From: Candidatus Latescibacterota bacterium
GTDB taxonomy: Bacteria; Latescibacterota; UBA2968
Direction of reading: 5' to 3'
DNA length: 64,000 nt
Assembly: GCA_965116885.1 (NCBI GenBank)
Contig: OZ220741.1
Span: 2,752,001 to 2,816,000, forward strand
The translations under genes and the position numbers were made by a program. The notes under the pieces are model-generated. The model had not been told where the DNA came from. It made no database searches and saw only the letters and a program-made list of their open reading frames with translations. This document shows, piece by piece, positions 51,543 through 58,500 of the stretch (position 1 is its first letter; each line of letters starts with the position of its first letter).

Positions 51543-52505
51543 TTAAAAAAGTGAGAGTTGGACGGGGTCTTGTTCTGGAGTGGGTTGTCTGGCAGGTCTG
51601 TCATCGGGATAGCACACGGCTTTGAAGGGGCAGGTGGTACACAGGTGGGTATTTGTCGTCATGGGGAAAGTGTCTTGCGAAGCGGTGTTTTGCTCGGGAT
51701 CGTCGAGTAGCGCGCGCATTTTCTGGACGCTTTCGGTGACAAAGATACGGGTCTGGTCGAGGTCGTCGGGAGAGAGGTGCAGGGTGCGCTCGGTGTTGGT
51801 TTGCAGGTAGATGTCCTGGAGCTGCAGGTCGGATAATGCGACGTCCCACTGCGAGGTGGCGTACAGGGCGTACACAGCGAGTTGGTGGCGGTCGGCCTGG
51901 CGTTCGCGTCCGGTTTTCCAGTCGAAGATATAGACAGACTTATCGCGGCGAATTGCCACGTCGAGCACGACCCAGATTTTGGTATTGGCAAGGGTAAAAT
52001 CTGTGAGGTCCTCAATGGAGAGATAGTCTTCGGGACGGGCAGATTGCAGGGTGGTGTAGGCATCAGAGGCGAAAAAAGTATTGAGACTGGTCGAAATGTG
52101 ATTGGCCGACGTGTTCTGATCGGTTTCTGTAAAGGGTTCGTTGTAATAGTGTTCAAACAGATTGGTGTATTGAGAGGCCGAATAGCGCCAGAGATGTTCT
52201 GCGGATTCTTGCAGGCGTTGGCGGAATAAATTTTGCGCGTAGGTCTCGACGGCAAAGGGGAGAATATCGCGCTCCAATTTCAGTGCGTTGAGCGCGTTGC
52301 TGATGGCGTCGTGAACCACGGTACCGACGAGTTGCGGTACTGTGGTTATTTTTTTCAGGCGATAGAGCAACTGGGCCTGCGCGTCTGCGTTTTTGTCCCA
52401 GCCACCCCAGCTGCCGTAGTAGTTGAAGTAGTATTGTCGCTTGCACGATTCAAACATGCGATGACGCGATGGCGACCAGGAGAACTCGTTTTGGAAATTG
52501 GACAT
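51543..52505 (-). CDS. PD-(D/E)XK nuclease family protein (AddB/Cas4-like Fe-S staple)
   Basis: WSPS...CKRQY, GTVVH, D...FDWKTG, QLAVYA, CTTCPFKAVC; start 52505 or 52511. Confidence 0.88.
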   Translation of the reverse strand: MSNFQNEFSWSPSRHRMFESCKRQYYFNYYGSWGGWDKNADAQAQLLYRLKKITTVPQLVGTVVHDAISNALNALKLERDILPFAVETYAQNLFRQRLQESAEHLWRYSASQYTNLFEHYYNEPFTETDQNTSANHISTSLNTFFASDAYTTLQSARPEDYLSIEDLTDFTLANTKIWVVLDVAIRRDKSVYIFDWKTGRERQADRHQLAVYALYATSQWDVALSDLQLQDIYLQTNTERTLHLSPDDLDQTRIFVTESVQKMRALLDDPEQNTASQDTFPMTTNTHLCTTCPFKAVCYPDDRPARQPTPEQDPVQLSLF

Positions 52506-52507
52506 GT

Positions 52508-53782
52508 TCAATAAAGTGCGTTTAAGACGTCAAAATACGTGGGAAATGTTTTGTTGACACAGTCGGGGTCGTTTATGACAATGCCGGGGATTTTCAGTCC
52601 GATCAGCGACAGGCTCATCGCCATGCGGTGATCGTCGTACGTGTCGAGTGCGGCGGGTTGGATGTGGTCTGCGGGATAGACTGTGAGGCCATCGGCGCGG
52701 GTATCAACGCGCACGCCGAGTTTGTTCAGTTCTGTTTTGAGTGCGGCGATGCGATCGGTTTCATGGAGGCGGAGGACGGCTACGTTGTGTACGCTGATTG
52801 GAGCAGACGCAAACGGAGCCAGAGCGCACAGGGTTGGCACGATGTCGGGCGTGGCGTTCATGTCGATGTCGAGACCCGACAGACGCCCTGTTCCGCGCAC
52901 TTCAATGCCTTCGGGGTCTTTGTTTACATCACAGCCCATTTTGGACAGGATATCGACAAAGCCGATGTCGCCTTGAATGGATTGCGCCGTTAAATTGGGT
53001 ACGCGCACGCGACCGCGGGTGAGTGCGGCTGCGGCAAAGAAATAAGAGGCGTTGGACGCATCGGGTTCGATCTGATATGTGCGGGAATGATAGCGCTGGC
53101 CAGCGCGTATGGTGAAAGAGCGGTAGTTATTATTGGTGACTTCAATGCCGAAGTCGCGCATGACGGCAATGGTGAGGTCGATATACGGTTTGGATACGAG
53201 GTCGCCTTTGACGTGGATTTCGACATCACTTTGGGCGTAGGATGCCACCTGAAGCAGTGCCGTGAAATACTGGCTGCTTTTGCTGCCGTTCATGGTGGTG
53301 CGGCCACCTTTGAGGCCAGAGGCGACGATGAGCGCGGGGGGGCATAGCCCGTCCTTGCCTTCACAGCGCGCGGTTACGCCGAGGGGGGTGAGGCCGTCGA
53401 GGAGGTCCTGGATGGGGCGCTCGCGCATCCGTTCGACGCCGTCTATGGTATAGGTTCCAGCACCCAGGCCGAGATATGCCGCGAGAAAGCGCGCCGAGGT
53501 GCCCGAGTTGCCAATGTGAAGTTCTGCCTGATCAGCGGGGATGTGCCCGCCTGTGCCATAGACGCGAAATGCGTTATCTGACTCATCTACGCGAATGCCC
53601 AGATCGCGCAGGGCATTTGCCATATATCGCGTGTCATCGCTCATGAGTGCGTTGTTGAGGTGGCTGATACCGTCTGCGAGGGCGGCAATTAGCAGAACGC
53701 GGTTGGTGATGCTTTTAGAACCCGGAATCGCGACATTTGCATCGATTGGGGTTGTCATGGGTTGGATTTTAAGAGTTTTCAT
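52508..53782 (-). CDS. aroA: 3-phosphoshikimate 1-carboxyvinyltransferase
   Basis: PGSKSITNR, GNSGTSARF, SSQYFTALL, RLHETDRI, DDHRMAM. Confidence 0.97.
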   Translation of the reverse strand: MKTLKIQPMTTPIDANVAIPGSKSITNRVLLIAALADGISHLNNALMSDDTRYMANALRDLGIRVDESDNAFRVYGTGGHIPADQAELHIGNSGTSARFLAAYLGLGAGTYTIDGVERMRERPIQDLLDGLTPLGVTARCEGKDGLCPPALIVASGLKGGRTTMNGSKSSQYFTALLQVASYAQSDVEIHVKGDLVSKPYIDLTIAVMRDFGIEVTNNNYRSFTIRAGQRYHSRTYQIEPDASNASYFFAAAALTRGRVRVPNLTAQSIQGDIGFVDILSKMGCDVNKDPEGIEVRGTGRLSGLDIDMNATPDIVPTLCALAPFASAPISVHNVAVLRLHETDRIAALKTELNKLGVRVDTRADGLTVYPADHIQPAALDTYDDHRMAMSLSLIGLKIPGIVINDPDCVNKTFPTYFDVLNALY

Positions 53783-53950
53783 AGGTAGGAAATTGACGTA
53801 CTCCCAAATCTAAAGCATTGGGATTGTAGAATCTTGTTGCTTCAGCAGGGATTGTGGGATCAACAGTAGTTGCTTGCTTCCCCGAAGTTCGGCAAGTCTT
53901 ACGCTACCTCCGCCATAGGTGGACGCCCCCACCTGTGAATGTTTATCGCC
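53773..53950 (-). ncRNA. Predicted TnpB omega/reRNA scaffold plus flank-derived guide (5' boundary approximate)
   Basis: Overlaps the tnpB 3' end; stems such as AGGTGG...CCACCT; ends in RE hairpin + TCAA; guide would be TTTCCTACCTATGAAAACTC. Confidence 0.7.
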
Positions 53951-55005
53951 GCGTTGAGGTCTCTATCCATCTCAAGGCCACAGGCGCAACAATGGAATGT
54001 TCTCTCTCGCAATTCGAGATTCTCTTTCACTGTATCACAAGCCGAGCAGGTCTTTGACGTGGGTAGCCATTTGTCGATTTGTTTGACAACTTTGCCCGTC
54101 TTTTTTGCCACATACTTGAGAATGTTCAAAAAGTCTGAGAAGCCCAAATCGCTAATCTTTCTGCCCCACAACGCTTTCAAGGCGTCGATATTCAGCGTTT
54201 CAAAATACATGACGTCATATTCTTTACAGAGTTGATAGGCAAGTTGCCAGTGATAGTCTCTGCGCTGATTAGCAACGCGCCTATACGCTCTGGCAAGACT
54301 TACTCTGGCTCTATGACGGTTATGGCTCCCTTTCTTCTTGCGAGAAAGATTGCGATTAGCCTTTTTGACTTTCCTCGAATTACGATTGAAGAACAATGGC
54401 GATTGTGTGCGTGTGGTATCTGAGGCTGTTAGGTATGTTTTCAAGCCGAAGTCAAAGCCTGCGGTTTTACCGTTCTTGATCATGAATGACTTGATACCCT
54501 CAGCCTTTGCAACAACACATAGCCACAAATCGTCTACACGGTCACGTTTGATTGTGACCGTTTTGATACGCTCTACATCGAACTTTCTGCTCTTATGGTA
54601 TCTGAATATACGCTTGCCAATACGCACCTTGTTACGCTCAAGGAATTTGTATCCTGCTTGCTTGAGCGTATAGGACTGATACCGAAAGCGAGACCTGAAA
54701 GTAGGTGGACGCTTATTATCTCTGGCAAAGAATTTCTGATAGCCAAAGTCTATACGCTCAACCACATTTTGCAATGCCTGGCTCGGCAACAAACGCCAAT
54801 GTGCAAAGCGTGTTGTTCTTTTCAGCTTTGCCAAATGGTTAATCATTGTGAACTTACTCGGATATTTGCCAAAACGCCGATAGTATCGCTTGTGCAAAGC
54901 AATGAAATGATTATACACCTCAGCAAAAGAATCTATATCCCTATGGATATACATATTGCGATCACAGAGACTATACATTTTGTATTTATACGTTAAGTAT
55001 TCCAT
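53899..55005 (-). CDS. tnpB: RNA-guided endonuclease TnpB
   Basis: SQALQ, RuvC residues GFDFG / FETL / DRDLNAAINI intact, CSAC...CCAC zinc finger. Confidence 0.95.
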   Translation of the reverse strand: MEYLTYKYKMYSLCDRNMYIHRDIDSFAEVYNHFIALHKRYYRRFGKYPSKFTMINHLAKLKRTTRFAHWRLLPSQALQNVVERIDFGYQKFFARDNKRPPTFRSRFRYQSYTLKQAGYKFLERNKVRIGKRIFRYHKSRKFDVERIKTVTIKRDRVDDLWLCVVAKAEGIKSFMIKNGKTAGFDFGLKTYLTASDTTRTQSPLFFNRNSRKVKKANRNLSRKKKGSHNRHRARVSLARAYRRVANQRRDYHWQLAYQLCKEYDVMYFETLNIDALKALWGRKISDLGFSDFLNILKYVAKKTGKVVKQIDKWLPTSKTCSACDTVKENLELRERTFHCCACGLEMDRDLNAAINIHRWGRPPMAEVA

Positions 55006-55011
55006 AATGTA

Positions 55012-55040
55012 AATATACACAAAAACAGTAATTTATGCAA
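55012..55040 (-). promoter_or_regulatory. tnpB promoter (probably leaderless transcript)
   Basis: TTGCAT-17bp-TATATT, then 6 nt to ATG 55005; no SD. Confidence 0.65.
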
Positions 55041-55500
55041 GTTTTATGTAGTCAGTGAACAGATGATTTAGGTCGATGAAGTGCTGGCGCACTTGTACAC
55101 CGCTCCACCGCCCACATTGCCTTGAGCAATGTGCCACCATGCTAAGCATGTTCCGTGATGATTTTACACGGAAGCACCGCACCATAAATTCGGAAGCCCT
55201 TGCAAAACAACGCTCGCTAACTCGCGTCTGCTTCCCAACGCTAAAGCTGTTGGGTCTTACGGGCTGTAAGATAAATTAAAAATTAAAAATGAACAAGGCA
55301 CAATAGTTTCCCCGCAGGTGTTTTTTCGATGTCCTGTTTTAATGGCGTTACACCCTGCCATTCTGTCGCTTGATTTTTCCCGATACTGGTTTTAGATTAG
55401 AAAGCAGATTGTGATATTCTCTCCTGATTCTTTTTCCTCTCTCCAATTTCTTTTTTTCGAGATGCCCTCCCCCAACATCTCCATTTATGGGAGCGTGTTG

Positions 55501-58500
55501 ATGAAATCTTCTGACTTTGTCCATTTGCATAGCCACACGATGTATAGCCTGCTCGATGGCGCGTCCAGAATAGAAGATATTGCCCAGGTAGCCGCCGAAT
55601 GGGGCATGCCTGCGGTTGCGATGACCGATCACGGCAATCTTTTCGGTGCTATTGATTTTTATCGGGCGATGAAAGATGTGGGCGTCAATCCGATTATCGG
55701 GTGCGAAGTGTATTGTGCGCTTGGAAGCCGATTTGACAAAAAATCTATGCCGGGTCTTCAGGGCAGTTCAAACCATCTGGTTTTGCTGGTCAAAAATTAT
55801 ACGGGATATAAAAATCTGATCAAGCTGGTGTCTTCGGGGTATCTCGAGGGCTATTATTATAACCCGCGCATAGACAAAGACTTGCTGCGCCAGCATTCGG
55901 AAGGGCTGATTTGCCTGTCGGCGTGCATCGGGGGCGAGATACCCTATTTGATTGAACGCGAGGGATACAAGACGGCGCAAAAGGCCGTGGAGACGTATCT
56001 CGATATTTTCGGCGATGATTATTATCTGGAGATTCAGCGGCACGGCATTGACAAAGAAAAAAAGATCAATCCAGGATTGGTCAAGTTGCACGAGGAGATG
56101 GGTGTGCCCCTGGTGGCGACCAATGATTCGCATTTTACGCGCGCCGAGGACCACGAAGCGCATGCGGCTCTGGTCGCTATTCAGACGGGTAAGACATTGG
56201 ACGATCCCAAGCGCATGTGTTATCCCGAAGGCGTGTATTTTAAGTCGGCAGAGGAGATGTACGAGCTGTTTCGGGATATGCCACACGTTCTGGAACCCAC
56301 GCTTGAGATTGCCGAAAAATGCAATCTGGAGATTTCATTTGATGAGTCTCACGCGCCTGATTTCCCTTTGCCAGAGAGGTATGATTCGGCCAGTGATTAT
56401 CTGAAAGATCTGGCGCGCAAGGGCATGGAAACGCGTTGCAAGCAGGTGACCTCTGAGCATGAGGAGCGCCTGAAGTTTGAGTTGGGTGTGATCGATCAGA
56501 CGGGATATCCGGGCTATTTTTTGATTTTGCACGATCTGGTGCAATTTTCCAATGCATCTGGCATCCGCGCAGGCGCGCGCGGGTCTGCTGTGAGCAGTCT
56601 GGTGGCTTACGCACTGGGCATAACGGCTGTGGATCCCATCGAATACGGGCTGGTATTTGAGCGGTTTTTGAATCCCGAGCGGATTTCGCCGCCCGATATT
56701 GATTACGATATTGCCGACCGCGACCGCGAGCAGGTCATCGATTACGTGGTGCAAAAATACGGACGCGACAATGTGTGTCAGGTCATTACGTTTGGCACTA
56801 TGGGCGCGAAGGGCGTGATCCGCGATGTGGGGCGGGTGTTAGACCGGCCATTTGCAGATGTCGATAGAATTTCAAAATTGGTACCCGCAGAATTGAAGAT
56901 GACGCTCGATAAAGCTCTCGACCAGGTGCCCGAGTTACGTCAAATTGCCGAAGATGGGGACATGGGGGAAAAGATGATCGGCATAGGAAAGCAACTCGAA
57001 GGTCTGGCGCGCCATGCGTCGATTCACGCGGCTGCTGTGGTGATTACGCCCGAGCCTGTGACCGAGTTTATGCCCGTCTATAAGGCGCCCAAAGGCGGGG
57101 AGGTGATGACGCAGTACAATATGCACCACGTGGAAGATCTGGGCTTTTTGAAGATGGATTTTTTGGGGCTTCGCAATCTGACGGTGATTGACGATGCCGT
57201 GAAGATGGTGAAGGAAAATTACGGCGTGGATGTGGATGTGGATAACTTGCCTCTGGACGATGAGGAGACCTATCGCCTGTTTGGCCGGGGCGATACGACC
57301 GGGGTGTTCCAGTTTGAAAGCGCGGGGATGAGGGGCTATTTGCAACAACTGAAGCCGGATACGATTGGCGATATTATTGCGATGAATGCGCTTTATCGCC
57401 CGGGACCGATGCAGTATATTCCCAATTACATCGACCGCAAGCACGGACGGGAAGAAGTGATATATAACGACGAGAAGATGCGCCCGGCTCTGGAGGAGAC
57501 GTACGGCATCATTACTTACCAGGAGCAGGTGCAGCGCCTGTGTCGTGACCTGGCTGGATTTACACTTGCCAAAGCCGATGGTATCCGCAAAGCCATGGGA
57601 AAAAAGTTGGCCGATGTGATGGAAAAGTATCGGCTTGAATTTTTAGAGAGTACCATGGCCAATGGCGTTGAAAAAACGGTCGCAGAACAGATATGGCGAG
57701 ATATCGAGGTTTTCTCGGGCTATGGGTTCAACAAGGCGCACAGTGCGGGCTATTCGATGGTGGCTTACCAGTGCGCGTATCTCAAGGCGCATTATCCGGC
57801 TGAATTTATGGCGGCGAATCTCAACAGTGAAATTGGCAATATAGAGCGTCTGGTCGTTCTGGTCGAAGAATGCCGACGGATGGGTCTGGACGTATTGCCT
57901 CCAGATGTAAATGCAGGGCAGGTCGATTTTATGGCTGCCAAAAATGAGATTCGAATGGGTATGGCTGCTATTCGCAATGTGGGACGCAGCGCGGTTCAAG
58001 CGATTGTAGCAGCGCGTGACGCAGATGGGCCTTTTGAGTCGCTATTTGATTTTTGCGATCGCGTGGATTCTCAGGCTGTGAACAGGCGGTGTATCGAAAG
58101 TCTGATTAAAGCCGGTGCTTATGATTGCGTGCCGGGGCATCGCGCGCAGTTGCTCGAAGCCTTAGACCGCGCACTGGAGATGGCGCAATCTGTACAGATG
58201 GATCGCGCGCGTGGGCAAATTTCCATGTTTGAAATGGTCGAGATGCAAACGCAGGCGGTGAACGACCAATCGTTACCCGAGGTTGAGGAATGGACTGAGC
58301 GCGAACGCCTCGCTAATGAAAAAGATATGCTGGGCTTTTATCTTTCGGGACATCCGCTGGAACGCTACAGAACCGATTTGTCGGAGATGGGTATGCGGTC
58401 GGTAAATGATCTGACGGGATTGCCCGATGGTGCAGAGGTGCAGATTGGGGGCGTTTTAACTGAAGTTAAACCGCATACGACACGCGATGGTCGGCCCATG

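Follow-up and report, generated by a model that had tools for sequence, protein, structure and literature searches.

A tnpB-only IS200/IS605-type element between TTTAT and the aroA start of a Candidatus Latescibacterota genome

How did a transposon encoding a TnpB nuclease come to lie ten nucleotides ahead of the start of an essential gene of amino-acid synthesis, and what would it do there? The question is raised by a locus of Candidatus Latescibacterota bacterium, found in a stretch of 64,000 nucleotides (assembly GCA_965116885.1, contig OZ220741.1, positions 2,752,001 to 2,816,000 of the forward strand), hereafter the window, which belongs to a genome assembled as one contig of 5.56 Mb; coordinates are window positions throughout. 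The element, tnpB-only and of IS200/IS605 type, measures 1478 nt, runs from 55270 to 53793 on the minus strand, and has the same orientation as aroA. Its last base (53793; ...GGGAGTACGTCAA) is followed by 10 nt, TTTCCTACCT, and these by the aroA ATG at 53782. Very probably it is a non-autonomous IS200/IS605 insertion (tnpB plus a predicted omega-RNA, no tnpA) made 3' of TTTAT before aroA, and working according to the TnpB model.

Insertion site, ends and target motif

The aroA locus was compared in 20 other genomes of the genus (18 plus the remaining 2). The element is at aroA in none of the 20, and TTTAT lies exactly 10 nt before the aroA ATG in 15; the ATG itself keeps its aligned position throughout the 18 genus orthologues compared. 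In the closest genome, G017 (locus L025), the aroA protein of which is 97% identical, the locus reads ...CATTTTTAATTTTTAATTTAT, TTTCCTACCT and ATGAAAACTC in succession, and carries letter for letter the 24-mer empty junction TTTTAATTTATTTTCCTACCTATG which the initial annotation had predicted. Left flank and right flank are joined in G017 with zero extra or missing bases, as in the scarless insertion typical of IS200/IS605 elements; hence the insertion lies exactly between TTTAT and TTTCC, with no target duplication or loss, and this is the signature of IS200/IS605 transposition.

The features of the locus, from the left end of the element to aroA, are the following.

55271..55275, minus strand: TTTAT, target and candidate transposon-adjacent motif (TAM), immediately before the left end, and joined to TTTCCTACCT in the G017 empty site.
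55006..55270, minus strand: left end, 265 nt; boundary set by the empty site, with a DNA fold and the left-end alignment.
55271-55255 and 55254-55234, minus strand: two adjoining left-end hairpins, the second being the family-wide CCCAAC...GTTGGG hairpin.
55258-55255, minus strand: tetranucleotide AAGA, 5' of the CCCAAC...GTTGGG hairpin, read as a putative left-end DNA guide.
55040-55012, minus strand: promoter-like TTGCAT-17-TATATT in the left end, a candidate by sequence.
53899..55005, minus strand: tnpB coding sequence, 368 aa plus stop, ATG at 55005 (PF01385, PF07282, NF040570).
53793..53961, minus strand: predicted omega-RNA scaffold, about 169 nt, covering the last ~60 nt of tnpB and running to the right end (30-copy alignment, RNAalifold).
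53823-53802 and 53796-53793, minus strand: right-end hairpin and terminal TCAA, both within the predicted omega-RNA scaffold.
53773..53792, minus strand: predicted 20-nt guide TTTCCTACCTATGAAAACTC, beginning right after the element and made up of the aroA leader (10 nt), the ATG and the 7 nt that follow.
52508..53782, minus strand: aroA (EPSP synthase), 424 aa, intact (Pfam PF00275, E 4.5e-119).

The placement first proposed for the element, 10 nt before the aroA start, with TTTAT at 55271-55275 and a TCAA end at 53793, proved exact, and the guide span said to cover the aroA ATG does hold leader, ATG and the next 7 nt (53773-53792). The only long open reading frame in the element is tnpB. On the far side lies dnaE, divergently oriented, the insertion site being the aroA-dnaE intergenic region. 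Past aroA, a gene of the PD-(D/E)XK nuclease family (PF12705, E 3.2e-19; 51543-52511, minus strand) begins 4 nt inside the aroA end.

BLAST of the element with 100-nt flanks found 9 genome copies that include a tnpB body, and also several end fragments on their own. In all nine the right end reads ...GAGTA[CT]GTCAA and similarity ceases at the base that follows, as a check on the ends of other copies called for, and copies of the same left-end type begin to agree at TTAT. Copies for comparison were taken from this search, and not from a genome-wide fuzzy search with the 13-nt right-end tip and 2 mismatches, in which almost all of the 112 matches were noise. Because the other copies share these ends and G017 has the predicted junction, the TAM TTTAT, the guide and the empty allele hold as initially described. 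Single insertions common to two species were also observed. Locus L046 of genome G003 and copy c2 (G000:C1:383894-385361) occupy one insertion site, with identical left flanks, and in G003 the right end is set off from the shared flank CATGCCAACG by five bases, TTTAC, which copy c2 lacks; copy c3 and L048 of G017 are likewise one insertion.

Target motifs were monitored at 21 distinct insertion sites, 11 in the source genome (two solo left ends included) and 10 in relatives, orthologous sites being counted once, and the boundaries of copies other than the aroA copy being set by analogy, not by empty sites. NTTAT is found at 14 of the 21 sites (TTTAT 9, CTTAT 3, GTTAT 1, ATTAT 1), 6-8 nt before a conserved GCCCGTAA, NTTAC at four, and other motifs at three (copies c6, c8 and c9). 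At 12 of the 14 NTTAT sites, the last of the four nucleotides preceding the left-end hairpin is A (AAGA or AAAA), the other two sites having AAGC; at all 4 NTTAC sites it is G (AAAG or AAGG). The predicted core target of the family is TTAT, with T preferred before it, and a sub-lineage uses TTAC. In the passages of Meers et al. consulted here (bioRxiv 10.1101/2023.03.14.532601), the TAM is recognized through pairing with a left-end DNA guide; the joint change of target and tetranucleotide fits this published rule, and the target is matched by the tetranucleotide 5' of the left-end hairpin as in IS200/IS605 elements. The TTAC/AAAG sub-lineage comprises L054, L055, L068 and copy c5 (L062), and belongs to the same genus as the TTAT/AAGA lineage.

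Parts of the window were also found in runs labelled as sponge, coral and marine metagenomes. In run X1 a 107-nt contig spans the filled junction without differences (53716-53822), with 30 letters on the element side, one letter short of the bridging criterion. A joint of 53792 to 55271 in run X16, skipping 1478 nt, fits the exact empty site, the shorter side being 27 letters long in a mixed community, and runs X1 and X16 also contain variant empty joints, which correspond to the TTTATTTTTAGACCT allele present in L030 and L032. All these results are consistent with the genome comparison, though weak evidence if taken alone, and add little to it. Summed contig depth in run X17 is higher over 53786-54028, but was left unused, since many family copies collapse on the conserved right end and confound it.

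TnpB, subterminal hairpins and predicted omega-RNA

The 368-aa product belongs to the TnpB family, as judged from profile and structure matches. Pfam domains PF01385 (OrfB_IS605) and PF07282 (Cas12f1-like TNB) are over their cut-offs, and NCBIfam NF040570 (RNA-guided TnpB) scores 220.4 bits versus a cut-off of 100; the narrower NF038281 (IS200_TnpB) scores 226 bits, under its cut-off of 425. The best natural match among solved structures is ISDra2 TnpB (8bf8, 8ex9, 8exa, 8h1j; E 1e-35, residues 9-358). D185, E269 and D349 align to ISDra2 TnpB D191, E278 and D361, which we take to be the RuvC catalytic triad, and C320, C323, C339 and C342 to C331, C334, C351 and C354 of the CxxC..CxxC zinc finger; the length and the intact D-E-D triad claimed at the outset are both borne out by the count and by this alignment. 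Open frames of 368 or 375 aa with the catalytic and zinc-finger residues are present in all nine genome copies, as are the ATG start and an M-x-Y-[LI]-T opening, and the TnpB proteins of the other copies are 75-95% identical to that of the aroA copy. With catalytic residues intact and both transposon ends present, a TldR, i.e. a nuclease-dead TnpB-like regulator, was ruled out.

Imperfect subterminal hairpins at both ends, with no terminal inverted repeats, are a trait of IS200/IS605 elements, and are found here. The two hairpins are alike (CCCAAC..GCTTTAGC..GTTGGG at the left, CCCAAT GCTTTAG ATTTGGG at the right). Folded as single-stranded DNA, the left-end hairpins reach -10.7 kcal/mol (z -4.3), a value equalled by 0 of 200 shuffles; the right-end hairpin is weak in energy (-4.0 kcal/mol, z -1.1; 29 of 200 shuffles do as well), and is found at the same place in 22 of the 24 distinct right-end tails of related copies, with changed stem sequences. 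The hairpins of the initial annotation are thus upheld on different grounds, the left one by fold energy, the right one by recurrence. A generic inverted-repeat finder returned 11 pairs, none corresponding to the subterminal hairpins, the stems of which are too short for it; they were assessed by targeted DNA folds.

Upstream of tnpB, the left end holds a conserved module of about 75 nt (within 55006-55150, minus strand), parts of which are also found alone elsewhere in the genome. It includes a hairpin, CACATTGC-TCAAG-GCAATGTG (55113-55133, minus strand), the pairing of which is kept with different stems in copies c5 and c6, followed by 40 near-invariant nt, 27 of which are missing in the relative L047. 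The sequence TTGCAT-17 nt-TATATT (55012-55040, minus strand) is kept in all 12 aligned left ends and stops 6 nt before the tnpB ATG. It was not flagged by a consensus promoter scan; were it a promoter, the tnpB mRNA would have little or no leader.

The tnpB family was found in 17 of the 21 genus genomes, and the last 200 nt of 30 distinct copies were aligned. The RNAalifold consensus has 8 helices with 36 pairs in all; it begins near 53961, within the 3' end of tnpB, and extends to 53795. Pairing is kept in 98.4% of cells, with compensatory changes in 10 of the 36 pairs (76 cells), and falls to 36-46% when partners are slid by 1-3 columns. The observed covariation score was reached by none of 500 column shuffles, a figure that is not a probability, as the aligned copies share ancestry. 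Covariation concerns helices 3 to 8, and helices 4 to 6 change on both sides repeatedly (UA/CG/GC/AU). The conserved 3'-end structure fits an omega-RNA scaffold; such a structured RNA, running from the 3' part of tnpB as far as the right end, is a trait of the TnpB class and is predicted here.

According to the same excerpts of Meers et al. (bioRxiv 10.1101/2023.03.14.532601), the flank beyond the right end serves as the TnpB guide. The first 16 nt of the predicted guide occur once in the genome, beside the right end, where GTCAA is in the TAM position, so that the resident site is not a target. The G017 allele matches the predicted guide at 20 of 20 positions and has the TAM; the alleles of several other species differ by one base.

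Mobility, aroA and rival readings

According to the reading favored here, the element would have entered the intergenic region between aroA and dnaE in single-stranded form, immediately 3' of TTTAT, its left-end AAGA selecting TTAT targets through DNA-DNA pairing. The 3' part of the tnpB transcript would become the omega-RNA, with the flank TTTCCTACCTATGAAA(ACTC) as guide. Excision by TnpA would recreate the scarless donor joint of TTTAT and guide, the TnpB-omega-RNA complex would cut this joint inside the first aroA codons, and repair from a sister copy still carrying the element would lead to retention of the insertion. Cutting, retention, omega-RNA formation and the role of AAGA are modelled on the published TnpB mechanism.

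No Y1 (HUH) tnpA open reading frame, the encoded transposase of IS200/IS605 elements, was found between 53793 and 55270; the aroA copy is therefore non-autonomous, and needs TnpA in trans. Genome-wide, the Y1 transposase family PF01797 is matched only once (127.8 bits; G000:C1:5284124-5284477), directly upstream of the tnpB of copy c8, and the ends of c8 resemble those of the aroA copy. In c8 (G000:C1:5284124-5285710) the tnpA stop overlaps the tnpB start. Copy c9 has the same 60 nt before tnpB as c8, without tnpA, and looks like a deletion derivative; both have the left flank TGACC instead of TTAT, and CAAG before the hairpin. As 17 of the 21 genus genomes hold the tnpB family, with many site differences, the family has been mobile within the genus.

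A number of observations weigh against a working system at aroA. In c8, the only tnpA-bearing element, the right-end hairpin is weakened by GAG in place of GGG, and the left flank is TGACC. CAAT precedes the right-end hairpin in the aroA copy and in c5, GAAT in most copies. The nearest sampled relatives are only 94-95% identical, so that the aroA copy is not a fresh one. The scaffold of the aroA copy taken singly folds no better than shuffles (z -0.94), and the structural support thus comes from covariation among related copies, which share ancestry; no Rfam family matches in a scan of 52500-56500 with E up to 1. In three community metatranscriptome libraries no contig bridges the right end into aroA, although contigs are mute on RNA ends, strand and level. 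Finally, a replication-orientation bias is reported for the IS200/IS605 family, and is absent among the 9 copies, 4 being on the leading and 5 on the lagging strand according to GC skew (origin near 1.27 Mb, terminus near 4.29 Mb).

Several of these points would equally suit an inert relic, a copy with the anatomy described which is no longer excisable, its TnpB and omega-RNA being silent or inactive. The divergence from the nearest sampled copy, the altered hairpin of the sole tnpA-bearing element, the CAAT tetranucleotide and the missing bridging contig all go in this direction, and intact sequence is no guarantee of function, HpyTnpB of IS608 having been inactive in the assays described in the parts of Meers et al. 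cited (bioRxiv 10.1101/2023.03.14.532601). Yet the frame is open and has all catalytic and zinc-finger residues, as in all nine copies, the RNA helices are maintained across copies through compensatory changes, and the many site differences among the 17 genomes speak for a family mobile within the genus. We regard a relic as unlikely.

The position of the element raises the further question of how aroA is transcribed. The gene is intact, with one full-length copy in the genome, and is left with 10 nt of native upstream DNA; it would therefore have to be transcribed through the element or from within it. No terminator-like site was found in the element on the minus strand between tnpB and aroA, and neither the right end nor the native DNA upstream of aroA yielded a minus-strand promoter in a consensus scan. 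For these reasons, read-through from the element would be the simplest source of aroA mRNA. Co-oriented open reading frames of at least 80 aa start within 120 nt of the right end in five of the nine genome copies, which is about what intergenic AT-rich targets would give, and the aroA copy is not singled out by its position. Copy c9 has AGGAG immediately after it, and an ATG 11 nt away. A preference for sites just ahead of co-oriented genes was considered and rejected, 5 of 9 being not clearly above intergenic insertion.

Should aroA be a passenger of the transposon RNA, only read-through transcripts would exist, TnpB binding and 3' trimming would compete with translation of EPSP synthase, and excision would be lethal unless repaired. 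The nuclease of a transposon would in that case be coupled post-transcriptionally to host metabolism, and lethal excision would lock the element in place; we hold this scenario to be highly improbable. The initial annotation had suggested that omega-RNA 3' trimming could cut aroA read-through mRNA. Carried to full co-option, in which aroA is expressed solely from the 3' continuation of the tnpB/omega-RNA transcript and TnpB binding or trimming of the AUG-bearing guide controls EPSP synthase output, this idea is the least credible of all, for in spite of the 10 nt between right end and ATG, the lack of a minus-strand terminator-like site in the element, the intact single-copy aroA and the predicted guide covering leader, AUG and the next 7 nt, the aroA copy is not distinctive (five of nine copies precede a co-oriented frame within 120 nt), the arrangement is not conserved (0 of 20 other genus genomes), no transcript contig of the three RNA libraries bridges the joint, and a full-text literature search on omega-RNA coupled to a downstream gene gave nothing relevant.

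Relation to known systems

ISDra2 of Deinococcus radiodurans is the structural counterpart. The RuvC D-E-D and CxxC..CxxC residues align, its TnpB being 408 aa long versus 368 aa here; the ISDra2 omega-RNA overlaps the tnpB 3' end and the right end, its TAM is TTGAT, and a tnpA gene is present within ISDra2 but absent from the aroA element. IS608 of Helicobacter pylori, the mechanistic model of the family, which Barabas and co-workers are said to have described in 2008, reportedly has subterminal hairpins at both ends, inserts 3' of a tetranucleotide without duplication, reads its target by the tetranucleotide 5' of the left-end hairpin, and ends in TCAA, with GAAT before the right-end hairpin. 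GAAT is found at this place in most copies of the genus family too, and the TTAC/AAAG pair is shared by the sub-lineage; the aroA copy is unlike IS608 in its target, TTAT(T) with AAGA, and in lacking tnpA.

The locus represents one more fully specified natural TnpB system, with a 368-aa protein, a predicted omega-RNA scaffold, TAM, guide and a natural target allele in a sister species; the protein is 40 aa shorter than ISDra2 TnpB, and the system is ready for a cleavage assay. The genus family also provides a natural series of TTAT and TTAC targets changing together with the left-end tetranucleotide. In other respects the biology follows the published TnpB model, and the position 10 nt before the start of an essential gene is a curiosity.

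A close parallel is with ISGst2 of Geobacillus stearothermophilus, a different host, and is drawn from the published description as excerpted from Meers et al. (bioRxiv 10.1101/2023.03.14.532601). TTTAT is shared, and is there both the TnpA target and the experimentally shown TAM of TnpB2; TnpB2 cuts the scarless donor joint, in which the TAM abuts the right-end flank, promoting retention, and elements related to ISGst2 are mobilised by a single TnpA. TTTAT also adjoins the solo tnpB elements of the archaeon Sulfolobus islandicus, likened here by the portion of the description seen in PMC10640517: these are tnpB-only, have 5'-TTTAT-3' at the left end, and feature conserved right ends with diverging 3' tips. 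TTTAT as a TnpB TAM is thus already published and not new, and in its anatomy the aroA element belongs to a familiar class, that of non-autonomous IS200/IS605 elements with TnpB, a predicted omega-RNA and a TTTAT-type TAM.

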